Shown: positions 11,810-50,685, numbered from the whole stretch's first letter. The stretch: DNA of 58,807 nucleotides, filler included, from Circinaria calcarea (GCA_051942165.1; 7 parts of 7 records of this genome joined end to end with filler, not necessarily neighbours in it), one strand, 5' to 3'. The notes: generated from the sequence alone by a model not told the origin. Program-made: numbers and translations.

Positions 11810-14656
11810 TTATTTTAGAGGAGTAAGCGTAGCAAGAAGGAATAAAGATCCCAACGTGTCTGGGTGCTTAGCCCCTAATTTTTTTTCCCGCCCTTCTAGC
11901 GCTCGTCGACATAATTTTTCCGCTTCTTCGAACCTTTTTTGATCTTGTAGCACGACCACAAGAGCGCTTATGCTTATTAAGGTATCAGGATGCTCAACCC
12001 CTAACACCTTTTCTCTTTTCCTTAATACTTGTCGACACATTTCTTCCGCTGTTTCATACTTTCTTTGCAATCGTAATATAACTGATAGATGGCTCATGCT
12101 GCTCAATGTTTCCGGGTGTTCAATACCTAGCATTTTCGTCCTTCCCCTCAATGCTTGTTGAATCATGTGTTCGGCTGCTTTATACTTTCCTAGCTTCTGG
12201 AGCACGATCGCCAGACTGTTTATACTAAATAGCGAGTCTCGGTGTTCAACGCCCAGTATTTTCTCTCTTATTCCTAATGCTTGTCGAATCATTTGTTCTG
12301 CTGCTTCAAACTTTCCTTGCTCTTGCATTACGATAGCTGAGCTATTCATACTGAATAGGGTGTCCAGGTGCTCAAGGCCTAGTAAATTCTTTCCACCTTC
12401 TAATGCTTGCAGACTCATTCGCTCTGCGGCTTTGTATTTCCCTTGACGTCGCAGTGCTGAAGCTAAGCAATTCATGCTCTTCAACGTGTCTGGATGCTTA
12501 ATGCCAAGCTCCTGTTTTCTTATGTCCATGACTTCTTCTAGTGCATTTTCGCCCTCAGTATACCTTCCATCCCTATATAGACACATTCCAACCTTTTCGA
12601 GTAATGCGACACGACCTTTAATATTTTGGTGTATCTTTGCTGAAAGTATCGCATAAATTGCATGCGGTAAGTAAGATCTCCATAGGATCCGATTCTCGTG
12701 CTTGTCTATTGGAAATGTTTTTGCCAAATGTTGTAGAGCTTGAGACATACATTGATACATCTTCCCATTTTCTAATAGCCAATTGCGCATTGCAAGATGC
12801 ACTAAACGGTGTAGTTTGAGAACTGAATCTGTGCTAACAGATATCCTAGTTACAAATGAGTACGCGTTCAGAACCCCAATAGCGTCGAATAGTTTCTTTC
12901 TAGTAGTCGCTGGTGGAAGAAGCGATTGCGGAATATTCTTGGGCTCAATGCAGGCCATGAAAGATAGATACTCGACCGCTAATGAGTCACGTTGCTGAAT
13001 CTGCTCGAAAGAGATTAGCCACGTCGTCACAACTGGGTTCTTCACGTTGCGATATCTGGTGTTGTCTTCGAAGTCCTGACTGAGCAACTCAACAGCCTCT
13101 TCTTCTTGTCCTGACAAGAGCGACAGATAATCAGAAAGAGTGATCCCAGTTTGACTAATGTACGCTGCGGCCTGCACAATAGCCAGTGGCAGGTAAGTAA
13201 GCTCAGCCACTAGGGAAATTGCGTCGTGCCGCTGCTTGGCGAGGTCATGATCGTGCAGGTAGCTTTTGGGCAGCTCCATGGCAGCCTCTTCGCTCAGTTC
13301 TGAGACTTTCATGACGCTGTGTGGTGCCAGCTGAGCCGCCGTCTTTCTGTCACATGTCGTAAACACTACTGAGCCCTGCTCGCTCCTCGGAATATATTCG
13401 ATTAGATCTTGGCATCGTGGTTCAGTGTTCTGGCTAGTGACTTTTACGGATCCTGGCTTGGCCATCCACATCTCGATATCGTCGGCGTTATCAAACACAA
13501 GCAGCCATGGGCCCACATCTTCATTACTCAAATACTCTTGCACAAGCCTTTTTACGTCCGCTTTTTCATCTTCCGAGCCAGGGATCTTAAGCTGCAGGGC
13601 AACATCGAGGTAAGATTGATGAAGGCTTTCTAAGTTGTTGGCCATAATCCAGATGATTAAATAGTTTTTACGCTTATCGGAAATACGTAAAAGCAGCTCA
13701 AGTACCAATTGCGTCTTCCCGACCCCTCCAAGGCCCGTGATAGCAAGCTTTGCGGTACGATTCTCGCTGAATAGCTTTTCTTCAAGCCAAGCGAGCTCGA
13801 ACTCGCGGCCAGTGAAATGAGGATTTCTTTCTAATGGCACGATCCATTTCGGACGTATTCTGGCCGCTTTTTGTTGTTCCGCAGGGAATAATATAGGTTG
13901 AACTTGAAGAGACGCATCAAGCAGATGATCTTTTGAGTACCTATCGATCTCATCTCGAAGACGACGGAACGCGTTACGTTCTCCCTCACCATAGATGGCC
14001 GGTATACTAATGTCGAAGATCCCAAGAAGAGAGTAAGCCTTGTCCTCCTTGCGCTTGGCTGATCTCTTTTCTGCCCAAGATAGCCGCTCGGCAACACTGA
14101 ACCGCGAGAGCAGCTCCCCTCGAAGCGCATGTATTGATATTCGCGTAATTTGGTGAAGTTGTTGTTCTAACGACTCCTTGTCTCCGAGTCTCAGATGCTC
14201 ACGGCAAAAGAACTCTACACATTGAGGAGCAATGAGCTCTTGCAGCGTCCAGCTTCGGGTGAACCATCTGCTCTTGCGCAACTGCGAGTCTCTATCGTTT
14301 TCGCCGCTGGGCGTTGAAACATCTGTAAGGAACACATAACTTTTTTTCGCATTTCTGTACCATCGGAACATGGAATTGATGTTTTCAGAAAGCTCTGCGG
14401 CACTCGTTTTATCGATACAACAGGTGTCCACCCAGAAATACCGTAAGCCATCTCTAGCCGCTTGTTCGCCGCAGAATTTGATCTTCTCGTATCCGGCCTT
14501 GCCTCGGCCTGAACCCTTCATCATATCTTCAAAGGTGACCTCTTGGCTCTCATCTCCCCATGTGTGAGAGAGGATGGCATATTGAGGGATCGCATCATCG
14601 AGCAACTCCCCAGTCACGCGGAAGTCTCCGTTCGGTAGAATATCTAAAAGACGCAT
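11810..14656 (-). CDS. Fungal NLR: HET - NB-ARC - TPR, intronless, ~948 aa from MRLLD
   Basis: HET domain (YAILSHTWG, FWVDTCCIDK, WFTRSWTLQEL), P-loop GLGGVGKT, Walker B LLVFDNAD, YLPLAI, LHRLVH, and six 42-aa HPDTL-type TPR repeats. Confidence 0.95.
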   Translation of the reverse strand: MRLLDILPNGDFRVTGELLDDAIPQYAILSHTWGDESQEVTFEDMMKGSGRGKAGYEKIKFCGEQAARDGLRYFWVDTCCIDKTSAAELSENINSMFRWYRNAKKSYVFLTDVSTPSGENDRDSQLRKSRWFTRSWTLQELIAPQCVEFFCREHLRLGDKESLEQQLHQITRISIHALRGELLSRFSVAERLSWAEKRSAKRKEDKAYSLLGIFDISIPAIYGEGERNAFRRLRDEIDRYSKDHLLDASLQVQPILFPAEQQKAARIRPKWIVPLERNPHFTGREFELAWLEEKLFSENRTAKLAITGLGGVGKTQLVLELLLRISDKRKNYLIIWIMANNLESLHQSYLDVALQLKIPGSEDEKADVKRLVQEYLSNEDVGPWLLVFDNADDIEMWMAKPGSVKVTSQNTEPRCQDLIEYIPRSEQGSVVFTTCDRKTAAQLAPHSVMKVSELSEEAAMELPKSYLHDHDLAKQRHDAISLVAELTYLPLAIVQAAAYISQTGITLSDYLSLLSGQEEEAVELLSQDFEDNTRYRNVKNPVVTTWLISFEQIQQRDSLAVEYLSFMACIEPKNIPQSLLPPATTRKKLFDAIGVLNAYSFVTRISVSTDSVLKLHRLVHLAMRNWLLENGKMYQCMSQALQHLAKTFPIDKHENRILWRSYLPHAIYAILSAKIHQNIKGRVALLEKVGMCLYRDGRYTEGENALEEVMDIRKQELGIKHPDTLKSMNCLASALRRQGKYKAAERMSLQALEGGKNLLGLEHLDTLFSMNSSAIVMQEQGKFEAAEQMIRQALGIREKILGVEHRDSLFSINSLAIVLQKLGKYKAAEHMIQQALRGRTKMLGIEHPETLSSMSHLSVILRLQRKYETAEEMCRQVLRKREKVLGVEHPDTLISISALVVVLQDQKRFEEAEKLCRRALEGREKKLGAKHPDTLGSLFLLATLTPLK

Positions 14657-14975
14657 GGTCAGATAGGAAATCCCAAGGCTTTGGAGGACAGTCCGTCGAA
14701 GGCAATTCAAGCTCGACAGCGACCGCAAGTTCGAGATGTGGGCGAGGATTTCTCGTGTTGGGACTTAGAGATTGGGTGAACTGATCAGCAAGAGGATTGA
14801 ATGTCTTAAAGGCCTTATCACCTTCTAGGGATTCCAGTAGCCTCCAGACGAAGCTGAGGCGTTGCGCCTGAAGCCGAAGGAAAGGGGGAGAGGCATATAT
14901 TTAGGTAGTCAATTTGGCAGAACAAATCCTTAGCTACACTACCTAGTATCGTTATAAATAACTCAGCCACACTTT

Positions 14976-27247: not shown

Positions 27248-29816
27248 ATGGATCCGCTCTCTATCATCGCAGGCTCTATTGCCGTTCTTGGTGCCGGCGG
27301 AAAAGTAGTCAAGGGGCTTACAAAACTCAAAGACTTGCGCAATGTTCCCGATCTATTACTGGCGGTCGTCAACGAGGTATCAGATCTCAGCCTGATCGTG
27401 CAGGAAATCAGGGCAATATTCGGGCAAGATACGATACATGGAACGATCCCACCGACGGCAACTTCTACTCTAACTCAACTCCTTGATCGTGCGCAGGTGG
27501 TTCTCCTTGAACTCGACCAGATCATCAACTACCGACTACTCTTGCCGCCAAACAATGATGATGAGATCAACGTCAGCCACTCTGCTTGGCTTGGCGAAGA
27601 ACGCCATGTTCTTAAACTTCAAACGAGACTACGTACGATCAGATTAGACATAGTGGCAGGACTCGCGACCTTGAATTTGTTAGTGACTACCACGAAGTTC
27701 AAAAGGAGTTGCTGACAAGTTGTCATACCGCTTTAGGTCAAGTGCCCTTCGCCTTGAAGTCAGACTACAAGAGCTTGGCATCATGACCGAAAATGTCCAG
27801 CAATCACAACAGCTGTGCGAAGACCATCTCAGGCAAGCTCCACGACAGGATGCGGTGGAGCAAATGTTTGCGCAACTACGTCACTTGCAAGACCTCCAAT
27901 ACCGCACTGATAGTACTCTACGTGGCCTAAGCAATGACCTCATCACGTCTAGGGAGCTCACAGCTTGTTCGAGCGTCAACCAGCAAAGTCCCAGGGGTAT
28001 ATCGACGGTGACTGGACCACTGATATCTGACAGAGTGACTCTACCCAGGTCGTCAAATGCCATAAACATTAAAGTGAAGCAATACCGCGGTGCATCCTGT
28101 CCACCGAGATGTTTATGCAAATGCCATACGAGCAAGCAGATGAGAAGTCCCCAGCTCTTAGATCGGTTAATAGGAAACCTATTTTTGGGTTACTCACATA
28201 CCCCGATCTTCGCACCTAGTTGTGACAAGGCTACTTGCGGTCAACTTCCATTCTGTTTCATCACTATTACATATCTATTCCCAACTTGGTTCCTGCATCA
28301 AATTTTGTCAATATTTTTTGTGTACACGAAACGAGATGGGCCCGCTTTAAGCTTAAGGACGCTGAGGATTCGTTCTGGAACTGATGTGATTTTTCACTCC
28401 GCTGCTATTGGCGATATTACCCGTATTAAATCATTATTTGCAAAAGGGGAAGCATCTCCTTTTGATGTTATGGCAGCGAGTGGTCAATCGCTTTTAGACG
28501 TAAAGAAAGTCAACCCACCTGCGGAAGTAATTACTTACCCGCATCCAGATGGCTATCCGCGAAACGAAACATGAGGTATGCCAGCTCTTGCTCAACGAAG
28601 GGGCAGATCCATATTTTCAGATTGGAACCACTTGGCAAGCTAAATATTCTTGGGGTTATCCTTCTTCTAATTAAATAACAGGCCAACTATTGATCTGGCT
28701 TGGAATAAAATACTTCGCGGTATTGGAGATACAAATGCATTGGCAGCTTTTCGACGCATGTTTGCCGATGACAGCTACCTCGAAGATCAGCGTTTTACGA
28801 CTTTGCATAACATAGTTCTCGGTCTAGATTATAGAGATCTGAGAAGCTATCTTCAAACATGCTCCAGGCCTGAGATTGACCGAACTGATAAATTAGGTCG
28901 AACTGCGCTGCATTGGGCAGCAGCTAGAGCTGATCTTGGCGCAGTGCAGAACCTTTTGGCTATGCACGCAGATCCTAACATCATGACTTCTCGGGGTCAT
29001 GGGCCTTTGCATATGGCTGCTGCAAATGGAGTGATTGAGATTATGAACTGCTTGATTGATTCTGGAGCTCAAGCAGACGGAAAGGATGATCACTATCAAA
29101 TTACTCCTTTGATATATATGTGTACCTTTGCGATGCTAAACTCAGATTGTCTAAAGAGACTTATTGACTCAGGAGCTAATGTTGATGCACAAGAATACCG
29201 AGGAGCTACTGCGTTGATATATGCCTCTCAATACAACGCCACCTCAGCTGTTATTATCTTACTGGAAACTCACGCCGATATCAACAAATCGAAGTTTGAC
29301 GGAGAAACACCCTTACATGTAGCTGTCCAAGCGAACAGCCACGATACTTTGGACATACTGTTGTCCCACGATACAAACTGTACATTATACACAGAGCGTT
29401 CCCGCTCGATCCTCCACGAAGCAGCCGGATACGGTGATCTGAAAACATTACAAATCCTCCGATCCGCACGCTTGCAAGGCCTAGAGACCACCAGGAAAGA
29501 CTCAGCAGGAGATACCCCAGAGCGACTTGCAAATCGACGCACCGACGAGCCGCCTGAGTGGCATACCGCTTTTTCCGATCTGTTGGCAAGTGTGACTGAG
29601 GAAATCCCTGAAACGTCACAGCCTGCGGAAAGTGATAACAGCGGAGCAGCTCCCGCATCAACAGCTGTGAGATTTGTCATAGCTGCCATGACACAGCTTT
29701 ACGAAGAGATGCAGCAGATTCACCAATATGCGTCTCAACTTCCCCGCCCGCCGAATGCCGTTCTGCGTGCTTTGCTTGTGATTTGTGTGGCTGTGGCGTG
29801 GCGGCTTCTTCCATAG
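27248..29816 (+). CDS. Fungal STAND-type N-terminal (HeLo-like) helical domain plus ankyrin repeats and a C-terminal hydrophobic helix; 4 exons
   Basis: MDPLSIIAGSIAV start, CPPRCLCKCH, and ankyrin repeats (GRTALHWAA, GHGPLHMAA, GATALIYAS, GETPLHVAV). Introns at ~27679-27736, ~28500-28548 and 28635-28681. Confidence 0.88.
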
Positions 29817-30498: not shown

Positions 30499-32582
30499 AT
30501 GGCATTCTGCCCCACCTGCTACGACCTAGACGGACGGAACTGCGGCTCGAAGAAAACCCCCCAAAGTGATAGTCTCTCTTTTCACTGTACCCTTCAAGCC
30601 CTCGCTCGGCAGCAAGCCCATGGCTGTCCCAGCTGCTCCCTTCTGCTCGACGGTATCCTCCCATACCGCGAGTCTTGGCGGGAAATCACGGAGAGCGAGC
30701 TTGATGTTTCGATTTGGAAGTATGAGAGGACTGCGTCTAATGTGTCGATTAATAGAATCGAGAATACAGGGGTGGGGAATATGAGTCATATGGTGCTTCA
30801 TCTTGAGTTTTTTGTTCTTGAAGGTAAGAATATGGGTTACTATAGGGGGTTTGGGCCTTGGCTGAGGAATAACTGGTTATTAACCATCTTAGTTTGAACT
30901 TGACCGCTTGTGTCTTATGTGCAATTAAGTGATAATTCGGCTGGTTTCACCATCGACACTATTTAATGTAACTACTGATATGTTTTCGTTGAATCCAACT
31001 ACAATCTTAATCCATTTGATGCTAACCGTCTAACAGGTCAGAAAAGCCCTTGGCCGACACTTTCACAGGCAGTACCTATTCCAGAGAATCCTCTCAGCAA
31101 CGAAACTAAAGTCAATGTCTTAACATGGATGCGAGACTGCGATGCTAACCATTCCGCATGCGTGGTGGGTCATTCTCTACTGCCAAAACGCATCTTAGAT
31201 CTAAGAGGTAGAGATGATAAAATGGATACAACCCTCAACGAACCTAACGCAGAGTGCGCTCCTTACATCACTTTCAGTCATTGTTGGGGAGTCAGTTGCC
31301 CGCTAACAACGACCCACGCCACTCTGAGTACTAGGAAGCAGGGCATCAAGTACGAAGATTTGCTTTGCACTTTCCAAGATGCCATTCGTATCTGCTGGTG
31401 GCTGGAGATTCGATACCTGTGGATTGACTCACTATGTATCATCCAAGATGATGTTGAAGACTGGCAGAGGCATTCCGCACAGATGGCTAATTTTTACGAG
31501 CAGTCATATTTGACAATCTCTGCTAGTACAGCATCCGACAGCCATAGTGGCTTTCTGGCCGATCGAGAGAAGACAAAAGTGGTCAGACATATCCAGGGCA
31601 ACGGCTCAGCCACTACTATTTACAGTCGTACGGCGATCAGCCATCTGCAGCTATTCAATATCTCTCAAGCCCTGTTGAGCCAAAGGATCGCTACTTGTTG
31701 TACACCCGGGCCTAGTGTTTTCAAGAGCGGTTCTTAGCAAGGCGCATTCTCCACTTCTTAATATCGGAGGTTGTTTTTGACTGTCGCAGCGGTCATCATT
31801 GTGAGTGTGGTGAGGTTATCCGAGAGTATGGCGCGGCCTTAAAGCACAGTTTTACGGCGATCAACAAAACCAACACCAATCCCGCAATTGAACTGAGCCT
31901 AGCTCCTTACGAACAAAAAGATCCTCGAGAATTCTGGCGAACGCTTGTCAAGGAATACACGGAGAATAGTCTTACCTTCTCCCGTGACAAGCTACCCGCA
32001 CTGTCTGGAATCGCCAGTCGCATGCCAGCCGCAGTGATGGGTTCTTACATTGCGGGTCTCTGAGAGCGAGATATCCCCAGCCAGCTGATCTGGTACGTTC
32101 CTAGCTACGTTAACGTCAGTTGGAGGCGACATACCTCCTATGTCGCTCCTTCCTTCTCTTGGGCATCAATCGATGGGCCTATACTATGGAGAGAATGGCA
32201 TTCTTGGGTAGAGTCTTCGGTAACAGTTCTGGAAGTGCGGCGTGAGCTTAAAGGAGTTGATCCAACCGGAGAGGTCTCGTACGGGTATATCACCTTATGC
32301 AGAGCTCTGATTACCGTCCGAATCATCCAAGTTCATGGAGTTGCCCATGTGGAGAAATCTGGATCCAGCAAGAAGGTGAAGTTGGACATACCGAGCGATT
32401 TGGCGTCCCTCGAAGGCGAATCTGTTTATTGTTTTAGACTGTTTACCTACTACGGCGTGATGGCGTTGGTACTCAGACGCTTAGCCAAGTCCGAGGACAC
32501 CTATGACCGGATAGGTCTCGTCAAGAACGCTGACAAGGTTTGGTTTCACAATGCTCCTGACAGTATAGTGACAATAATATAA
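30499..32582 (+). pseudogene. HET-domain heterokaryon incompatibility protein, disrupted
   Basis: LPKRILD, YITFSHCWG, YLWIDSLCIIQD, TRA*CFQER, DKLPALSG, YIAGL* and APSFSWAS motifs. Frameshift at ~31650-31700, TAG at 31713 and TGA at 32061. Confidence 0.88.
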
Positions 32583-37822: not shown

Positions 37823-38465
37823 TTTTTAAATACGTATACCTCATACGCATGTCCTATGCACCTTGTATGCACCTACTATATAACCCTTAGCCTTTCCTCA
37901 CCGCTTCACGCCTTTAAGCATTCCTGCATCAGTTTCTATTAGGTATCGCAGTAGCTTATTGATAGCCTCAATGAGTAGCAAGTACCTCAGGGTTATAGGC
38001 AAAGGATATTGCCTTAATAATTATTAAGGGGTAGCAATGCGGGATTAATTAGCTCATTACTTTGACTTTCTTTCTAATACGGACCAGGGGAACATTTTAT
38101 CCCAACGTTTAATACAACAATAACTGGAGATTATAAATCCATTATAAATAAAACGGCCAAAACTTTTATTCGTCGACATCACGTCCCGAGATCATACGAT
38201 CGGCGCATAGGATCCGGAGCTTAAATCCAAATATGATATTACTAATCGTCCTAAAAACAAGTACTCGATTTTATCGCCATTGGTTCTTAGCACACCTAAA
38301 AATTAGAACCAACGGATCACCACACACAGCCATACGCAAGATTCTAGCGTCACGGTCCACCAGGCTATATAGATTGGGCAAACTCCCGGAAACTGGCTTA
38401 ATATAAAAAGCTCCCAGCCTCTATTATCACATCGTTAGCACAAACCAGTAACCTTTTTGGGAAAA

Positions 38466-40259
38466 ATATCCACCTTACCAGAAATATTACCTCAGATCCT
38501 CGAATCCAGCCGTATTTTCTTGGCGGCCTTTTTAACGGCCGTTGTGCTCTATATTGTTTTTGCGCAATTATACGAGCCGAAGGCTAAGAGCAGTTTTCCC
38601 TATGTGGGCGTCGAGCAGGGATTTCTCCTTTTCAAGAAGATGCGTCAGCGACTTCACTGGTTCAAAAAAGGTCCAGGTCTCATTCACAGCGCATTTAAGC
38701 AGCATCGGGATACTATTTTTACTCTTCCATCACTTAATCGCACGTCAATAGTTCTGCCCCCTCGCTTCCTCAATGAAATTAGAGATCTTCCAAGCACTAT
38801 CGGTAACAACTCCCGCGCAACTTCAGATATAAGCACTGCATCAGTTGCTTCATTTAAGAAAGTTTACAGAAAAGTGCGAAAATACCCGACCAATATATAA
38901 TTCTTCATTAAAAAATGGACAACCTTAGATTACGATATTTTCGGACATGCTACTATCGATGCTATCAAAGCGCAATATATTTCCAAAATCGGCTCTCAGA
39001 TTAAACCGGCTTTAAACGAAGCAGTGTACGCTTTTAATATGCATTTCGACAAATATCCAGATTCGTACTCTCATTACCTCCTGCATTCATCGGTATTTTA
39101 AATAGTGCCACGCATTATACTTTAAGCTTACGGAAGAATAACTTTGCCTCCCAGACTGGACTCCTATCATAATTCAACCAAGAATTCTACAGCTCGTGTC
39201 CCAAATAATAACTCGAACAGTCATAGGGCCTGATATCTGTCGTGATCCCAGGTGGACTTCGGCCGTGATCAGCTATGCGCAGAACGTTTTCAGTAGTACT
39301 ATTCTTTTAAAACTTCTGCCTGATATATTACAGCCTTTGGCGGCTTTATTCTCGCCCTACTTCTACCGCATTCATAACTGTCGCCGAATGATCAAAAAGC
39401 TCGCCGCTCCCGTCATACAACAAATGGTGGCCTGGAAGCGTGATGACCCCGAATCTTGGAAAGCACACTTAAGAAATGACAAGGTTATTGCTGTTAACTG
39501 GCTAGTAGAGACTTCCCCCCCTCAGGAGTCAACCGTAGCCATGATTGCCCATCGACTAACCGGCGTGAGCTTCGGCGCGTCTCATACAACTTCCAATACT
39601 ATCACAAACGCCATCATAGACCTGGCCAACGATTTCAATCGTTGGGCTCCACCACTGCGAGAAGAAATCAGGAATGTCCTGGGAGCCGAATCAACACAGA
39701 TCACCAACGCGGACTTATCAAAGATGTGGAAACTTGATAGTTTTTTGAAAGAGTCCCAAAGGTTTCACCCTCTATCTAAGCGTACGTATACAAGAACTTT
39801 ATTGATTGAAATTCTATAACTAATAAAACATCGAATATGATAGTATTTGTGAATCGTAAAATAATAAAACCTTACACTTTGTCCTTAGGGGACGTTCTTC
39901 CGAAGAATGCCCATATCTTATTCGCTGGCGTTCCGATCTCCATGTCTGACGACTATTTCGACAAAGCGGAAGAGTTCGATGGGTTTCGCTTTGAACGCCT
40001 TCGCCGCAATTCTGAGGGCGACCATAACGGCTTGCAGTTCACTTCGTCCTACGCAGGAAGCTTATATTTCGGGCATGGACATTACATGTGCCCTGGGAGA
40101 TTTATGGGTAGCTTAATCTCCAAGCTCCTTTTGATTGAACTACTACAACGATATGATTTGAAGTTGAACGATGGAGGGCGGCCGGAAAACATTATATTCT
40201 TTGACATGGATGTGCCTAACCCCAAATATGAGGTTTTATTCCAAAATAGAGTAGTTTAG
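38466..40259 (+). pseudogene. Cytochrome P450 with G-to-A lesions at the start codon and splice sites
   Basis: N-terminal anchor, FGASHTT I-helix, ESQR (ExxR), FDGFRF and heme motif FGHGHYMCPG. ATA at the expected start, and AT/AA in place of GT/AG at introns 1-2. Confidence 0.85.
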
Positions 40260-40782
40260 AGCTTCTTATCGGCAAAGCGGCAATAAATTTCTGCAATGAA
40301 TTTTATATTCGCGACTTTTATTTAATAAGTTTTCTCGATAGCCTGTATTAAATTGCCTTCTACATATATCATATGCCTTATTCCACCGTCTCCCCCGCCC
40401 ACGTATCCTGATTCCCTCATATGCCGTATGTTATTTTAATTAACATAGCTTTCCGTATGAGCTGCTAGTTATGGAATCCTCCACATTAATCTCCCTTTAT
40501 CTTTTCTGTTTCTCCTGCTTCTACCATCCCACAGGACTCTAGCCCCTTCTCGACACCCCTTTACCTGATGGTACACCACTACCTCCTCGCTTGCCTCTCC
40601 ACCTCATCCGACCCGTTCATTTTTCTGTATATAATCACGTAGCTTCCTCGGCAGTCTAGCACGTCTAGCCCTAGACCTAATGTATTTGTAGCTTTCACTA
40701 ACAGGACCCCTTTCCCTCATATAATTAACCTCTTCGGCTTGTTATTTAGGAAGTCAATCTTTACGTGGAACCGGCTGCAACG

Positions 40783-40969
40783 CTGCGTATCCGACACCAT
40801 CCACCTTCTCGATTAACCCCTGCATATCCAAAACCATCCACATTCTCGATTAGCCCTGCATATCCGACACCATCCACGTTCTCAATTAACCTGCATGTCC
40901 AACACCATCCACGTTCTCGATTAACCTGCATGTCCAACACCATCCACCTTCTCGATTGACCCTGCATAT
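40783..40969. repeat. Minisatellite, ~35-37 bp x 5
   Basis: Head-to-tail unit CTGCAT(A/G)TCC(G/A)ACACCATCCAC(C/G/A)TTCTCGATTAACC with no spacers. Confidence 0.9.
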
Positions 40970-41756
40970 GCACTCCACTCTTATCGTGCTGCCTCAGGCC
41001 GCGTTTAATGACTCAATTTACCCTTTAATGCCTCCCCACTTCGGAGTTCGGATCCTTTTATCTTTTGATTAGATCACTTTACATATAGTACTCCACTTTA
41101 TAATCCTATCGGTGAGAACACATACCTGGCCAGTCCAAATGATCATCGGCCGGAAGGATCGCTTTTGCTCCTCTGGTGGCAGTTTTGCCGTCAGGGATGT
41201 CTGCCGAACTCACTAACTCCGCAATGCCCTCCCGATCTCTAGCATTCACGACCGGAACTCTTCCGTTATATTAATAATATATGCTACTTATCGATAACCA
41301 CCCCTCGGTCTAATTCCGTCATCCGTATAACCGCTGACAAAAGTATTAAAATCCTTCGGTATGACCAATTTAGACGTTACGAACTCGATTAATTACTATA
41401 TGTATTTTTGCTTGGATAATAGGGCGGCAGCATAAATAATAAGCTGTTCTGTTTCTGGTGTCCTACCATACAGCCAGTACCAGGCTTAGACCCTACATAA
41501 TCACCCGGATTATATTTGCCTACTAGCTCCAGAATTTAGCACCTAGACCCAATGTTAGATGCAGCCGATCTCGGTTCGGCCCGGGATAAAGCGTTCTTAA
41601 GCTTAAGTCCGTTCCGAAATTCAAAAGCACAGTTTATGCTGCCACCCACATTGCTGCTTCACTTTTTTAAAAGCGTCCATCTCTTTGATATATTTCTACG
41701 TCAAATCTGACTGAGCAAGAAGGAATCTATCGAATCATCAGTCAAACCCCTTCATC

Positions 41757-42010
41757 ATGTCCTCACCAGTTTGGTTTATTACCGGCACCTCCAATGGCAT
41801 GGGCCTCCTCCTGTCCCTTCGTGCCCTAAAAGCCGGCCATAGGGTCATCTCTACTGTTAGGGACCCCAAGAGATCAGCTGCAGCCGTTCAGAAGATCACC
41901 AACGCTGGTGGTAAAGTCATGACTCTTGACCTAGAAGAGCCGCAGGAGAGCATTTTTACAAAAGTTCGAGATGCTGAGAAAATTTACGGACACATTGATT
42001 ACCTGGTTAA
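41757..42010 (+). CDS. Short-chain dehydrogenase/reductase, 5' part
   Basis: VWFITGTSNGMG Rossmann motif and YGHIDYLV(N); cut by the linker. Confidence 0.9.
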
Positions 42011-42110
42011 NNNNNNNNNNNNNNNNNNNNNNNNNNNNNNNNNNNNNNNNNNNNTTAATTAATTAANNNNNNNNNNNNNNNNNNNNNNNNNNNNNNNNNN
42101 NNNNNNNNNN

Positions 42111-42902: not shown

Positions 42903-44075
42903 TCACCCTCGCCGTACAATTTTGACTCCACCGTCAGGAAAATGTCGCTCGATCTCCTCAGCCTCGCTATCTCCTTCCTCATCTCCAGCGTCGTCCACCA
43001 GACCTGGCGCTTCTCGCGCCCTAGCCTCTTCCTCCCACTCCTTTCTCTCTTTCTCGTCAAACTCATCTTTTCTATCCAACCACCTCTCCTGCACATCCCT
43101 TACATCCATCACCTTCATTCCGCTTCTCATAGCAACCTGCCATACCGTATCGTTCGCCCCCTCTGCGCCTCCAAATGCATACCCGCCTGCACGGTCGATG
43201 GCATGTAGGAGAGTCATCATACTCTTTTTGTCTTCTACAGCTAGTGTTTCAAAGCTGACGAGGCCGAAATCTTCGACTAATTCGATGATGGCTTTGTTTA
43301 GGCCTTCGAATTTGGAATTCGCCACAATGCCGGATTCTTGTTCCATATATGGGAGAAGGTAGGAGAGATCATGAACTTCGGTGTAGAAGTCAAGATTGAA
43401 GGGCAAGGGCGTGTACGTAGAGAGCTTGTCGATCTTCGTAAGGACGTTGAGGTGGGGGAGATCCATCTGTAGCATGGCGCGAAGGGAGAGTAAAAGTGTT
43501 GAGATGTATAGGGATGGTAGTGTCAGGCTATATGAGTCTGTCAGGTGTAGTGCGACTAGCTACCAAGAATATTCGATTAGTAAAACGTTCAACGAGAAAC
43601 GGTACGGGAGAGGGTGGGAGCAGACTCTGTACCCAAGCTTCTGTATCCGGAAAAAAATATTTCGTAATGACGAATGGTGCGTAAATAATTCCACCTGGCC
43701 AGGGCAATCAAAGAGTACATAATCCTCTATAGCATCGTCCCTATCAGCCTTCCACCCCCCAAACACCCCTGCTCATGTCTTCCTACCTCCAAGCCCCTTC
43801 AACCCATCCTCTAGCCACCCCCAATTATGTTCCAGTTCTTCGAGGGCATAAAGTACTGCTCCATTTGGTCCTAGCTCAAGATCCTCCATGGTTTCTTCTA
43901 TGGTTACAAGCTCCCGAACATCCAGCGCGCACGGGTAGGATGTATGATCGTTTGCAGGATCGAGGTTGACAACGGAGCATTTTCGTCCGATGGCGGAGAG
44001 GAATTGATGCATACCATCGCAATATGTAGATTTTCCTGAGCCAGGAGGCCCTATGACCAACTGAGCAAATGGCAT
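42903..44075 (-). CDS. GPN2: GPN-loop GTPase 2, 3 exons
   Basis: MPFAQLVIGPPGSGKSTYC, NLDPAN, LGPNG, FDCPGQVELFTHH, NVLTKID and LPFNLDFYTEV. Confidence 0.95.
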
Positions 44076-44329: not shown

Positions 44330-44903
44330 ATGTTTGCGCGCAGAACCTTCCATGTCACAAAGCCATTCTTCACTCATAGATTCTACTGGTCTCAAGCCAC
44401 TTTAACCCTCCCTCCGGACAAAACACTTGAGGTCCGGTGCTCTGTTGAAAAAGGCCTAGATTGCTCGGTGTCGATTGACAGAGAGGCCGGTTGTCAGTTA
44501 GCAGGATCTGAATTGGGTGATGAGGGCACCAGAGTAGATCTGATTTTTTATGGTGGTCGTCATTTTGCCCGTGGTATGATATTCATTGCAGTCCGCTACT
44601 GCTTCTTTTTTGTTCTTATACGCGTGTCTAGATAGGTCCCAGCACTCGCCTCGCTTAACCTTGACACAGGAGGCTGCAAAGCTCATAGAGAATAACCGTG
44701 GCGCTGAGGAAAGACAGGCTACACTGTATCATTTTGGGGGTAGCAATCAGGGTTCTGGTATTGCTTTCAAAGGGACTGAGGGAGGTATGTCATCGTGGCT
44801 CTCTAGCGGAGTTCAACTACTAATGTGCATGAAAGAGGAATTCCTAAATATCACTGCCCAGGGAATGGAAAAGCTCAAGCACGTACTTACAGCCCTGAAG
44901 TAG
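44330..44903 (+). CDS. Hypothetical ~171-aa protein with presequence-like N-terminus, 2 exons
   Basis: Intron 44574-44631 (GTATGA...CTAG) joins two ORF-track frames in phase. The N-terminus MFARRTFHVTKPFFTHRFYWSQ is basic and lacks acidic residues. Confidence 0.65.
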
Positions 44904-45026: not shown

Positions 45027-45485
45027 CTATGCATCGTTCGATAAAGGCTCCGCCTGCTCTCGTTGAGAGCTTGACGCCTGTCTCCAACGCGTACGATAGA
45101 TGGCCGCCAGTCCTGGTTCGTCCAGTTTGTTCTGAGCCACGTCGGAGTGGGCTTTCTCCAGCACGTCATCCATATCCACCGTCGAAGTACCTTCTTGCAG
45201 TATCATCCCATGCCGTGCCAAGAACATGTTAGCAGCCAACAATGCCGTTCTCTTGTTGCCGTTCCCAAACGCATGGTTCTTGATCAGCTTGACACTGAGA
45301 ACTGCTGCTAGCTCTGCCAGGTCATTCACTCCTCCGTAGTGCTGTTGGTTTATTGGGGATACGACTGCAGATTCGAGGAGGCCCTCATCACGGAGAACGC
45401 TTGTGGATGCGCCTTCCACATACTTGTTAAGCTCCTTGATGTGGATAGCTGCCAGGAACCGGAAGTGTATCATCTTGCTTGCCAT
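45027..45485 (-). CDS. Fic/Doc family protein, Doc (death-on-curing) subfamily, 152 aa from MASKM
   Basis: LRDEGLLESAV..P, DLAELAA and active-site loop KNHAFGNGNKRTALLA..MFLARHG. Lys where AMPylating Fic enzymes have Gly (GNGR). Confidence 0.92.
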   Translation of the reverse strand: MASKMIHFRFLAAIHIKELNKYVEGASTSVLRDEGLLESAVVSPINQQHYGGVNDLAELAAVLSVKLIKNHAFGNGNKRTALLAANMFLARHGMILQEGTSTVDMDDVLEKAHSDVAQNKLDEPGLAAIYRTRWRQASSSQREQAEPLSNDA

Positions 45486-47860
45486 AGCTACGCCACAAGT
45501 AGATGATTTCTCCTGGAGAGTGCCTCTAATTGTCAAGAGGATTGTGGCTAGCAGAGGCTTAGCGTGCTTGAAATGCTGGAAATCAAAAATTCGGGTAGTC
45601 AGCGTACTCCGATGCTAGATTTTATAAATTAGTGCTGGAGCAAAATTCTACAATGTAGTATAGAAACTATTCACCAAGAGAAGACTTATACGACCATCAA
45701 TCACCGCCGAAACCGCCCGGCACTAATCTTAGAAACACCCAAATTTTAGTAGTAGACCTAAGAGTTTCAAATTCTTGTATATTTCCATACCTAGCGTCAA
45801 TCCCACTGAATACAGCCTCCAGAATATAAGTGGCCTTTGTTCCTGTCCTGTTGCAGCCAATAAAAGACGGGATTTGACGTTGTCCCCGGGCCGTCCATCT
45901 TCCGTAGAAAGCCCGGTTTCTAGGGGGGTGGGTTTCGTCAGGTATTTAATTTTCGCCCCGGTACAGTATATAATAAAAACTAGGCGTATTCGCCCCAAGC
46001 CACCCTAAGCCAAGAGAAAGGAGGTGCACTATAGAGAGGGCGCTACGTCTTTAACAGGATGCTGTAGGAATTGGTCACATGTACTCACGTGAGTGCATAT
46101 GTAATATGCACTAGTCTATTTAATATGTAGAGATCTCGCGTAATAGAAGGCAACTTCAGGTAAGGGTTGCTGAAATACTATATTGACACTATGAAATACT
46201 GTTTGTGTGTAGAGAGTAAAGTAGAAACATAGCGCGAGTGTTAGGCAATGTAGCCTCTGTAAAAGGTATAGACCCGAAGTAGCCGAATACGCTAGACACG
46301 GGGCTGAGAAAGGAACCTAAGATCTTGGCGTCAGAAATCACTCTCTGCCTGGTAAGAGAGGTGGTAGGTATATATGAGGCATCAGTTTTATGAAAAAGTT
46401 GTATGTTTAGGAGATATCTCGGCTCATACGGAGGGGATATGAGATTGTTTAAGATGCTTCTTGTCAGTTGACGTTTGCCCTAGTCAAAAAACTAAAGTCA
46501 ACGTAAGCAAAAGCAAGGAAGACTTCCTACTCATAAGAACCAAGCTGCAAAATGGAAAAGGTGCTCGGAAATAGTGCTTGCTCTTAAATGTCTGCGTAGG
46601 AAGGGCTTCGCGGTTCGATAAGAAGCAAGCCGTGCAGTGGGCCTTATTGTCCCGATAATAGAGCTGTATCTGGACCAGCCGTTCACTTTACCAGTAATGG
46701 AGGATACCCAGAAAGAAGCAATATTTGAGTATGGCTCATTTACATCTCCTCATCCTGCATTGCCTGCCTTGCTTTATATGTATGAGTAAAGAAGAACTAC
46801 TCAGTCATGAATTTTCCTTGGTTTCTTTGATGACTGTTTCCACTGCTCGCTCGCCATTTTATGCTATACTGGTCCTAGATCTCGCTTCTTTTGACGTTCC
46901 TCGGTGTATCGCAAAACTTGAGACTTTCCCTTTCTAGAATTTCTCTCCTCGAAGACTAGTTTTCTATCCTGGGAGTGCTTCCTGATCTCTTATTTGTCTG
47001 TCACTTATATTATGTGGCATTAATGCTAGGGCAAGCCTCCCCCTTCAACAAGTCCATTAGACCCCGTACATCGAGAATCTTGGTGCGGCAAGAACAGTAG
47101 GCGGGGCGGCGATATAAATCGAGGCCGGCAAAGCAGTAAGAGAACCCAGACGAAACGAAACCCAGCAGCTAGTCCACGCTCAGGAGGCGTCCAGCTCAGA
47201 AGCGGCTTCAGAAAGTTGCAACTAGAAAAGTCTTAATTTTTGGCTGCCATAAGCACGTGCTGCTCATATTATCACACCTCTATGCGGCCTGTTGCAACGT
47301 ATAAGCTGGCAGGGTGGCTTAACACCATACGATTCCAATACGTTAACAGGCTATCTTAACTTGTGTGTTCACTGCCATAAAGCTACAACTCGTCAACCAA
47401 ATACCCTGTCACCTCAAGGTTTTATTCACGCACCATAGTAATTTGTTAAGTCATTAACATGTACTTCCTTATCTTGAATTGCTAGCTCTCCTACACACTT
47501 CAGAATTCAACCCTACACTTAAATAATTCTTTCGCATTCCCTTCATCGGCTTTCTCTTACCTTTTCATCCACACCGATAAAGAGTTTAGAAATCCATTAA
47601 CCACACCTCAGCATCAACGATACCAGAGCCTCCAATAAGTTAGTCAGACTTCTACCATCCACAATCATTCACCCAAGGACTCCTAGCTGGTCTGATTATC
47701 TGACTTAGGCGTTGAGTACATGTCGTTAACCTACGCTACATAACGTGGACAGAATTTACTGGCTCAAGGACACGAATTCTAAACCCTTCGTTACGTCTAT
47801 TGCAACAGCATTTCGATTTAGTTGGCCCTAAAGTAACACGCAGCATCTTTCACATCTGCA

Positions 47861-48575
47861 ATGCTATCCACGCAGCAAAAGCTGCATGCTCCACCCTCGC
47901 CACCACCAGGCAACGACCCCTCCAGACCAATAGAGATCATAGTCGACTCAAACAACCTCCTTACCATCAAGGCACCTTCTATCAGCTTCTCCTCCGGCAA
48001 TATCCCTCTTGCTGATCTCTCTATCATTAACAATCCTGTCCTCAACAGTACAACCAAAGAAATCGAAGCCACAACGAACTTCGTACAACACCTCCATTCC
48101 CGGGACTCGAGCCTCATATATAGCGTTACGCCCGTAATGGCTGGAGAGGCCATTTCGAACTTCATCGGCAGTCACCGTGGCAATGACCGTGGTGATGTGG
48201 GTTCGAGCGCCGAGACTGGGACTAGAGGCCACAAGGGGCGTGGAGTTAATGGTTCACGAGGCGAGGAGGGTAATAAACGGAAAAGGGATGCTGGTGGTAC
48301 TGGTGAGGGGGTTGATGGGGGGGAATGCCGGGGTAAGCAGAGGAGGGTGGAGGGAGTTGCTGAGGAGGTAATAATTCATGTTAAGAATCAACAGATCTGT
48401 GCTAACTCTTTAACAGCCAACATCATCACACACCGGAAGCGACGCAGAGGCCGAGTCCCAAGAAGGCTCTATCTTCGCACCAGAAGACGTGACTTCCTAC
48501 CAAGGATTTACAGGTGTCACACTTGAGGATGTGGTCAGTACCTCATTCTTCGACGAGGCGTTCTTTCCGGACTAA
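47861..48575 (+). CDS. Hypothetical protein with basic NLS-like patches, probably 2 exons
   Basis: ORF with KRKR and KQRR. A plausible intron at ~48368-48416 (GTAATA..GCTAAC..CAG) leads to an acidic tail ending in TAA at 48573-48575. Confidence 0.45.
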
Positions 48576-49608
48576 TACCTTGGTCCTGCGGGTACGGCTT
48601 GTACGTTACCTTTCAGCATCAGCATACTTGAAGACGATTCTAACGATGCAAACAGGTAGTCTCTTGGCAACTCAGCTCGCTCTCTTTCTTGTATTGAGAC
48701 GGTAGCCTCATATTAGGATTCAAGGGGAAGAGGTCACAGTTTGCTATATTTATAGTTTGAGAGGGACTCGAAGACGAGGGATTGAAAAGCAAGCATCTCA
48801 TCCTACAGAGGCTAGCGTTACAATTTGTACCTTCTTCCTATCACCAAAGCCCAACCAGGAGATTCCCACAAAACAATCCTCGCGCAATCCATCACTTGAA
48901 TTTCCCAATCTCCAATACCCAGCATAACCTTAAAACTTACATCTAGGATCTCCCATCCATTTCGATTCACAGACTAAACTCTCCATTTTCAACTCAACGT
49001 GTGCGTTACTACTATGATTGGGTGGTTGGGTACCTAGTAGCAGACTTTACAGCAGTTGGAATCGGATGCTGTGGTCGTGCTCGTGAGTCGATCTTACTAG
49101 GGCACTGCGGTTTTGGTTGAAGGATTTCTGGCAAGGGTACCGCATTCTATTGGGGACATACGGTTCTTCGATGGTGTTGTAGTTTATAGATAATAAGTGC
49201 GAAAGTGATAATAGAAGGGATGTACCTTGTTTGTGGAACAAGCTCTTCCCGAAAATCAGGTGTTCCGTCTATCTCTCCATCGATTTCAAAGGACTTTAGG
49301 ACGTTAAAAGATTTGCAAGGTCTTGGAAACAACATTCGAGGTGAAGGATCTCTAACGCCTGAAAACATCGCAATGATTCAATAGACTTTACTCTCCCCAC
49401 TAAACCATTCTTCCAAGATGAAGCACGCTCAAGTTTCGCAGCTGTACAACTGGGAACGAAGCAACCCTCATAGGCGATCCCGGAACGGCACTACTATTGG
49501 TCCGTGGCAGATTTACAAACAATACTCTATACAAACAAGCGAGCTCTATACAAACATTGTTCTCACTCCTTGAAGACTGGTGGAGAGTAACATCATGCAA
49601 TAAAGAAG

Positions 49609-50417
49609 ATGACCACCCGTAAGCCTGGACTTCAATATAATTGTAGAATTCCAACTAAACATGTACTAGCACAATACGAGCTCGCCGAGCCTCCCTCCGA
49701 TGCCATCTCAGCCATACAATTCGCGCCTACTTCTCTACGACTACTGGTAGCTTCCTGGGATAAGAATGTTTACTTGTACGATATCTCCAGTCCCGGTGGG
49801 CGCCTCTTACAAACCTTCGAACATCGCGCCCCCGTTTTAGATGTCTGTTTTGGCGAGAACGACGAAGAAGCCTACACGGCAGGTCTAGACTGGGATGTCC
49901 GCAAGTCCGTACCGCCCATTGCCCCATTCTTCCACCCCTCACCAAGAAACTAATCTTCCTCCCTCCTCCTTCCAGACTTAATCTCCAAACCGGCGCTCAG
50001 ACTGTCCTCTCCACCCACTCCGCCGGCGTGAAATCACTCGTCTACAGCCGCCCGCACAAACTCCTCATCTCCGCCTCCTGGGACTCCACGCTCCACATCC
50101 ATCACCTTGATGCATCTCCGCCCTCCACTCCCACGACCATCCCCCTCCCCTCAAAACCCTTCTCCCTCTCCCTCACTGCCTCCAAACTCGTCGTCGCAAT
50201 GGCATCACGCGCCCTACACATCTACGACCTCAAATCCCTCGCCGTCCTAACCTCCCAACTCTCCGCCACCTCCACTGAAAACCGAACGCATACGCTCGAG
50301 ATAGAGCCCTGGCAGCGGAGAGAAAGCAGTCTGAAATTTATGACCAGAGCGGTTGCGTGCATGCCCAATGACGCCGGGTACGCGAGCAGCAGCATCGAAG
50401 GCCGTGTCGCCGTTGAG
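49609..50417 (+). CDS. BUB3: Spindle checkpoint WD40 protein Bub3 (3' truncated)
   Basis: PPSDAIS, LLVASWDK, HRAPVLDVCF and RRESSLKFMTRAVACMPNDAGYASSSIEGRVAVE; two introns. Confidence 0.9.
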
Positions 50418-50685
50418 NNNNNNNNNNNNNNNNNNNNNNNNNNNNNNNNNNNNNNNNNNNNTTAATTAATTAANNNNNNNNNNNNNNNNNNNNNNNNNNN
50501 NNNNNNNNNNNNNNNNNGAGCGGTTGAACTATCCACCGAACGCACATATGGCAGAGCCTTCTGCCATGTAATTCCATAGTGAAGTCCATACACATAGAGT
50601 GGTAGTTACCATAGCCAATACAGCCTATTCCACCCTGTATCACATCCATTGATTAACACTGACCTTCCTGGCAGTCGGCATCCTT

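Follow-up and report, generated by a model that had tools for sequence, protein, structure and literature searches.

The window, by which we mean the whole 58.8-kb stretch of Circinaria calcarea DNA that was analysed, carries on its minus strand an intronless Doc-family coding sequence of 152 aa at 45027..45485 (ATG at 45483-45485, TAG at 45027-45029). The frame at 45027-45485 contains 0 internal stops and aligns over its full length with intronless homologues. The first-pass annotation had described an intact, intronless 152-aa ORF with two characteristic strings and had placed it in the Doc subfamily with a kinase-type motif, and both statements held. The string RDEGLLESA occupies residues 32-40 (45366..45392, minus), in the helix-2 region that sequence and alignment mark as common to bacterial Doc, and HAFGNGNKRTAL occupies residues 71-82. 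The catalytic Fic/Doc motif H71-A-F-G-N-G-N-K78-R79 lies at 45249..45275 on the minus strand, and its sequence fits HxFx(D/N)(A/G)NKR. The canonical motif of AMPylating Fic enzymes, HxFx(D/E)GNGRxxR, is not present in the window Doc, where Lys78 and not Gly stands at position 8.

In the profile search, the window protein matched Pfam Fic/DOC PF02661 with an E value of 5.7e-12 (46.8 bits, cut-off 24) and NCBIfam TIGR01550 DOC_P1 with an E value of 4.3e-16 (59.2 bits, cut-off 38.65), both above the cut-offs. TIGR01550 was matched by all aligned Doc family members (27/27). The phage P1 Doc chain 3k33_A was the top sequence match among the solved structures (E 4.4e-6), where the search returned 7 distinct sequences at E <= 1. 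The profile made from the Doc alignment found a single doc copy in the window. By these comparisons, the Doc-family similarity of the ORF is far above chance level, and the gene very probably encodes a Doc-type enzyme of the Doc subfamily of Fic/Fido.

The contig bearing doc is confirmed to be fungal and not bacterial, as had been claimed from the split genes upon it. A POP5 match (PF01900, 42341-42760, plus strand) corresponds to profile positions 48-104 only, and because this is just the second half of the profile, an upstream exon must exist. The GPN2 domain PF03029 is divided between two minus-strand ORFs (43773-44075 and 42903-43559), WD40 pieces, which may belong to BUB3, lie in two frames at 49591-50462 (plus), and HET, NB-ARC and TPR domains share one frame of 984 aa at 11810-14764 (minus). 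This last frame contains many TPR_10/TPR_12 repeats and has the architecture of fungal NLR-like non-self-recognition proteins. Further HET-domain and ankyrin-repeat ORFs are found near it (30979-31737 and 28671-29816, both plus).

A three-exon gene at 44330..44903 on the plus strand, according to its exon/intron model, converges on doc, with 124 bp between its stop and the stop of doc. Its product has a basic N-terminus that resembles a presequence and whose first acidic residue is D31. The neighbour gene matched no Pfam family and nothing in the Atlas, and had only 2 close database matches. In three metagenome loci (L081-L083), a homologue of this neighbour lies downstream of doc, convergent and in the same orientation as in the window; GPN2 was not kept beside doc in these three loci. 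The neighbour was considered as a possible antidote; a complex prediction of Doc with its exon 1 only gave no answer (score 0.00), with an uncertain fold of the partner, and weighs neither for nor against an interaction.

Of the 3232 candidates in the word-seeded protein search, 2380 reached E <= 1e-3, and the exhaustive search of representatives found 1700 matches at E <= 1e-3, with 77 at E <= 1e-10. The best matches listed were proteins without an organism name, 76-89% identical to the window Doc, followed by proteins of Circinaria calcarea (67%), Sclerophora, a Lecanoromycetidae species (named "death on curing protein") and Usnea; five relatives are 67-89% identical. At 38-46% identity, entries named "DOC family protein" were found in Durotheca, Pyrenophora, Xylaria, Trichophyton, three Aspergillus species, Pleomassaria and Microsporum, which bears out the statement in the first-pass annotation that such proteins are annotated in other ascomycetes. 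All 13 of the organism-named eukaryotic entries among the 120 matches listed belong to Pezizomycotina. Cluster look-ups added the lichen fungi Bacidia, Gyalolechia, Xanthoria, Variospora and Xanthomendoza, and also Phyllosticta. One cluster (P0053), found on hundreds of contigs, corresponds to the Aspergillus fumigatus DOC family protein Q4WC03, which is 42% identical to the window Doc. A scan of JGI metagenome contigs yielded ten fungal-type doc loci (L081-L090). For the bacterial loci (L001-L080), 185,579 species genomes gave 514 relatives selected by pattern, of which the best 80 were taken; their Doc sequences are 32-56% identical to the window Doc over local segments.

A tree was built from 123 rows, comprising the window, 19 organism-named fungal proteins, 21 proteins or loci without an organism name, and 82 bacterial rows (79 of the 80 bacterial loci and 3 named bacterial proteins). 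L052, with an ORF under 105 aa, the pseudogenes L087-L089, the fragment L090 and L091, a different Fic protein, were left out; L084 was the sole fungal locus row, and L081-L083, L085 and L086 were not added. Nesting of the window sequence inside bacteria had been put forward as support for horizontal transfer. In the tree, all 41 fungal or unnamed rows fell together, apart from the 82 closest bacterial rows. One branch separated them with UFBoot 100 and SH-aLRT 99, values that are rough because the bootstrap correlation stood at 0.987, not fully settled. A quick tree gave the same split between fungi and bacteria (SH-aLRT 95). The fungal stem branch measures 1.27 substitutions per site. The tree is unrooted and names no bacterial donor, and its bacterial sample was chosen by likeness to the fungal proteins, which suits a search for bacteria nested among fungi and is not representative of Doc diversity overall.

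Two subclades make up the fungal side. Subclade A (18 rows, 95/85) holds Eurotiomycetes, Dothideomycetes and Sordariomycetes, plus Xanthoria and Xanthomendoza. The window falls in subclade B (23 rows, 96/95), together with named rows of Circinaria, Usnea, Bacidia, Gyalolechia, Variospora, a Lecanoromycetidae species and Sclerophora. All seven named rows of subclade B (7/7) are lichen-formers. The A/B split looks like an old duplication followed by losses, because Teloschistalean genera occur in both subclades. On this tree, the window gene sits in an old, Pezizomycotina-wide clade of DOC family proteins, apart from bacterial Doc.

Codon usage and divergence were also compared. The doc ORF has a GC content of 0.529 and a GC3 of 0.599, and the nine other window ORFs have GC3 values of 0.42-0.54; its codon index against the long ORFs of the window is 0.823, and those of the nine others are 0.809-0.849. 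The Doc proteins of the syntenic loci L081-L083 are 54-56% identical to the window Doc. By the Nei-Gojobori method, L081 and L083 differ at 42 synonymous and 26 non-synonymous positions (dN/dS 0.139), L082 and L083 at 42 and 18 (dN/dS 0.096), and L081 and L082 at 6 and 8 (dN/dS 0.40). The two more divergent pairs of this syntenic orthologue group (dN/dS 0.10-0.14) indicate purifying selection, the absence of which had been named beforehand as evidence against the first-pass reading. Between the window and L081-L083, dS is saturated and dN is 0.39-0.41, which makes dN/dS unusable. Among L084-L087, the differences (0-1.5 synonymous, 2.5-6.5 non-synonymous) are too few for a meaningful dN/dS.

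The loci L084-L089 form a second group, 51-52% identical to the window Doc, without common neighbours and partly decaying. A pseudogenised doc paralogue is identical in three metagenome records (L087:2137-2676, L088:4962-5501 and L089:2339-2878), and it has an in-frame stop near codon 30, a change of GNKR to GNKW and a lost stop codon. At L090:160-507, GNKQ replaces GNKR and the frame is truncated. Because these paralogue copies are pseudogenes, the Doc family is dispensable in some lineages; where it is kept, it is constrained. The window doc itself is a real, intact, resident fungal gene that is ordinary for its lineage.

In the alignment of 27 sequences, which are 33-86% identical to the window Doc, the residues S39, A40, P44, Y50, N70, H71, G76, N77, K78, R79, T80, A84, A85 and F88 are invariant. 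L37, E38, S39 and A40 are conserved in both fungi and bacteria, and the R and D of RDEGLLESA are conserved at 0.83 in subclade B and lost from subclade A. Both fungal subclades and the 82 bacterial rows retain the catalytic motif; Lys at motif position 8 is present in 100% of subclade B and of the bacterial rows and in 94% of subclade A. Some near-invariant bacterial positions are replaced in both fungal subclades, namely the GG..G loop preceding RD and the Arg after LLESA, which has become Ser. Further replacements in both subclades, relative to the 82 bacterial rows, are Tyr to Leu, and Gly to Lys in helix 3. These changes are compatible with antitoxin binding having been lost, with a changed substrate surface, or with both, and therefore the substrate or the regulation may differ from that of P1 Doc.

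An AlphaFold2 model of the window Doc was calculated from the alignment of 27 sequences (mean pLDDT 78.4, pTM 0.75). It has six helices, and the fold spans residue 8 to about residue 136; behind it come a short helical extension and a tail that is disordered from residue 145. With VIA-align, the model matched P1 Doc 3dd7_A with Z 17.4 and an rmsd of 1.9 Å over 120 aligned residues, and model residues 8-135 superposed on the entire 123-residue P1 Doc chain; the second-ranked entry was C. elegans Fic-1 (Z 9.4). In the Foldseek ranking, P1 Doc chains took each of the first five places (E 1.3e-5 to 6.7e-5, with a TM of 0.78-0.81 on the target). The predicted protein thus has the six-helix core fold of Doc. 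Because the fold begins at residue 8, the window Doc has no signal peptide or presequence.

Toxins of this type are in nearly all cases encoded beside an antitoxin in the nearest bacterial relatives. Directly upstream of doc, an AbrB/MazE-type antitoxin (PF04014) was found in 29 of 40 bacterial loci at E <= 0.01, and 27 of those 29 matches were above the gathering score. A cognate antitoxin profile built from 22 of these 29 antitoxins picked out the partner just upstream of doc in 37 of the 40 bacterial loci that had been held out (E <= 2.6e-14). When the same profile was applied to the 3523 six-frame ORFs of at least 25 aa in the window and in L081-L090, the best E value was 3.9. A Pfam scan of the ORFs of at least 40 aa at 45340-48526 found no family at E <= 0.01. 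By both approaches, the region upstream of doc (45486..47836) holds no antitoxin gene. Because no cognate antitoxin occurs in the window or in the ten fungal loci, the window doc is not part of a toxin-antitoxin module. The best explanation appears to be that, in the fungal lineage, the toxin was retained while its antitoxin disappeared. Longer or fused forms were also sought, and no convincing one emerged: one protein at E <= 1e-8 was found among 6503 longer candidates; none of 14 somewhat longer relatives had a second Pfam domain (0/14).

The partners of the nearest bacterial Doc proteins (L001-L080), which lie about 250 bases upstream, have the AbrB/MazE fold of PF04014 and not that of Phd/YefM. 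Three bacterial loci on long branches (L056, L063 and L071) gave no match to the cognate antitoxin profile.

The window protein can be compared with several known systems. It shares with the phage P1 Doc toxin of the Phd-Doc module (PDB 3k33, 3dd7 and 3kh2) the six-helix core with full-length overlap and the motif with the kinase-making lysine. Unlike P1 Doc, to which it is only 21-23% identical, it comes from a eukaryotic chromosome, is longer at the C-terminus by about 16 residues, and was found with neither Phd nor another antitoxin. The chromosomal AbrB/MazE-Doc pairs of Pseudomonadota and other bacteria (L001-L080) are the closest sampled bacterial sequences and have the same core of LLESA, P, Y and NHxFxxGNKR, but they carry the cognate antitoxin directly upstream of doc. 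The fungal DOC family proteins of A. fumigatus (Q4WC03/AFUA_8G06180), Trichophyton, Pyrenophora and Xylaria resemble the window Doc in clade, size, motif and stand-alone architecture; in contrast to the window, they fall in subclade A, with QDGNKR and without the RD of RDEGLLESA. Metazoan FICD/HYPE is another eukaryotic protein with the Fic fold, and it is a distant structural match (Z 8.7-9.1). According to a 2014 review, FICD differs in having an eight-helix Fic core and Gly at motif position 8 (PMC4177925). It is also described as having a transmembrane helix and TPR repeats (PMC2686095), unlike the minimal Doc of the window.

It has been reported that a Lys in position 8 of the motif inverts ATP and gives Doc its kinase character (PMC4177925), and that P1 Doc phosphorylates Thr382 of EF-Tu, which prevents the ternary complex from forming (PMC6692046). 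By analogy with P1 Doc, the window enzyme would bind ATP in the inverted orientation and pass the gamma-phosphate of the nucleotide on to a protein substrate, at a Thr or Ser. It would act in the cytosol or nucleus, and a cytosolic substrate is most likely because there is no room for a targeting peptide. In this study, we believe that the window gene is probably a resident, vertically inherited, stand-alone Doc-type kinase of the cytosol or nucleus, which would act on eEF1A or a related translational GTPase as a conditional brake on translation. For the substrate, the leading candidate is eEF1A, which corresponds in eukaryotes to EF-Tu, or else a related translational GTPase; we name this substrate only tentatively, as a possibility short of an even chance. 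The threonine of eEF1A that is equivalent to Thr382 of EF-Tu is presumably conserved. The enzyme might be a conditionally expressed brake, for example in dormant or desiccated states, and not an addiction toxin, and its control might lie in its expression or in an unlinked factor instead of a linked antitoxin. A counter-point is the toxicity to be expected of an active Doc that has no inhibitor, should eEF1A be its substrate. A more specific form of this proposal seems rather unlikely to us as a whole: a bacterial toxin domesticated in the filamentous ascomycetes would have become an antitoxin-free kinase of eEF1A at the equivalent of EF-Tu Thr382, used for reversible dormancy, with the lichen paralogue serving desiccation and rehydration. 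For relatives in subclade A, expression values have been published: AFUA_8G06180 is 3.3-fold up in a conidiation table (PMC5838799), and TERG_02161 is given as -2.25 in a drug-response table (PMC6963840).

Among the other explanations, an active enzyme with the Doc fold and another substrate or reaction, such as a signalling kinase or a nucleotidyl- or phosphocholine-type transferase acting on a non-translational protein, is somewhat unlikely but the most serious. Such an enzyme would be non-toxic, and therefore no antitoxin would be needed, in keeping with the absence of one from the window and the ten fungal loci; the fungus-specific replacements at near-invariant bacterial positions and the long fungal stem are also consistent with it, and Fic-fold enzymes are described as catalysing several different modifications (PMC4177925). 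Against it, all nine residues of the motif, the Doc-specific lysine among them, stay the same in both fungal subclades, and the nearest fold by a wide margin is not that of an AMPylating Fic protein but that of P1 Doc. We regard as improbable the idea that Doc is the poison of a eukaryotic conflict system (allorecognition or cell death, an antiviral abortive response, or meiotic drive) whose antidote or trigger is encoded elsewhere. The descent from a toxin-antitoxin toxin, the loss or pseudogenisation of copies in some lineages, the two old paralogous subclades and the HET and HET-NB-ARC-TPR genes of the same window would suit it, but the HET and NLR genes are 13-33 kb from doc and not adjacent, and no fusions to NLR or other domains were found in the search of longer relatives. 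Moreover, a syntenic, single-copy gene with a dN/dS of 0.10-0.14 is unlike fast-evolving drivers or incompatibility alleles.

The first-pass annotation had considered action on competing bacteria or on mitochondrial EF-Tu, and these targets are now disfavoured, because a fold that starts at residue 8 leaves no room for a targeting peptide. An exported effector against bacterial-type EF-Tu, whether in competing bacteria, in the cyanobacterial or chloroplast translation of the photobiont or in fungal mitochondria, is accordingly very improbable; the membership of lichen-forming fungi in subclade B, as far as its named rows go, speaks for it, and so does the bacterial EF-Tu substrate reported for P1 Doc (PMC6692046). 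The Doc fold fills residues 8 to about 136, with no signal peptide or presequence, and subclade A is present in non-lichenised fungi, and both points speak against it. A distinct horizontal acquisition at this locus had also been proposed, and it is contradicted by the well-supported fungal clade (100/99), the conserved convergent neighbour and the window-like codon usage. That doc was horizontally transferred in recent times, is a bacterial contaminant or marks a chimeric assembly is disfavoured to the point of being hardly credible. The GC3 of doc is somewhat higher than that of the nine other ORFs, but its codon index is within the window range, the best bacterial identity is only 32-56% in local segments against up to 89% for fungal sequences of one clade, and an intron-containing neighbour flanks doc in three independent metagenome loci. 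The pseudogenised copies in the paralogous group might suggest that doc is a decaying, functionless relic. This reading is disfavoured just as strongly, in view of the intact frame, the catalytic motif that is invariant in 27 sequences, the dN/dS of the syntenic orthologues and the 67-89% identity to five relatives.

From the fungal clade, the synteny, the dN/dS of 0.10-0.14 and the window-like codon usage, it follows that any bacterial origin is ancient, and in the window doc there is no evidence of recent horizontal transfer. A bacterial origin in the distant past, followed by vertical descent, duplication and loss, is plausible as the simplest reading of the sequences.

Fungal Doc proteins are already named in databases, and the family is functionally uncharacterised. 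A paper of 2009 mentions Fic/Doc sequences in "a few fungi" (PMC2686095), and A. fumigatus and C. immitis are among the eukaryotic matches of a toxin-antitoxin survey of 2008 (PMC2446400). In the full-text literature, we found no functional study of a fungal Doc of either subclade; papers in subscription journals and supplements may hold more. What is new here is the single fungal clade with its two old subclades, of which that of the window is lichen-only by its named members; the AbrB/MazE-type, not Phd-type, partners of the nearest bacterial relatives, which are absent from the fungal loci; and the purifying selection where doc is kept, beside pseudogenised paralogues. A 2014 review describes all members of the Doc family as toxins of Phd-Doc modules (PMC4177925). 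The fungal clade would be a conserved exception to this statement, with an intact motif, purifying selection, no linked antitoxin and a predicted setting in the eukaryotic cytosol. The substrate of fungal Doc would show how a translation-arresting bacterial toxin stays safe in a eukaryote, and it could bring to light a new way in which fungi control translation, also, through the sister subclade, in the medically relevant Aspergillus and the dermatophytes.

Some minor features were observed elsewhere in the window. At 38439-40259 (plus) and 41715-42059 (plus), cytochrome P450 fragments occupy consecutive ORFs and a fragment of a short-chain dehydrogenase sits between P450 and POP5. At 40001-42000, the GC skew is strongly negative (-0.23).
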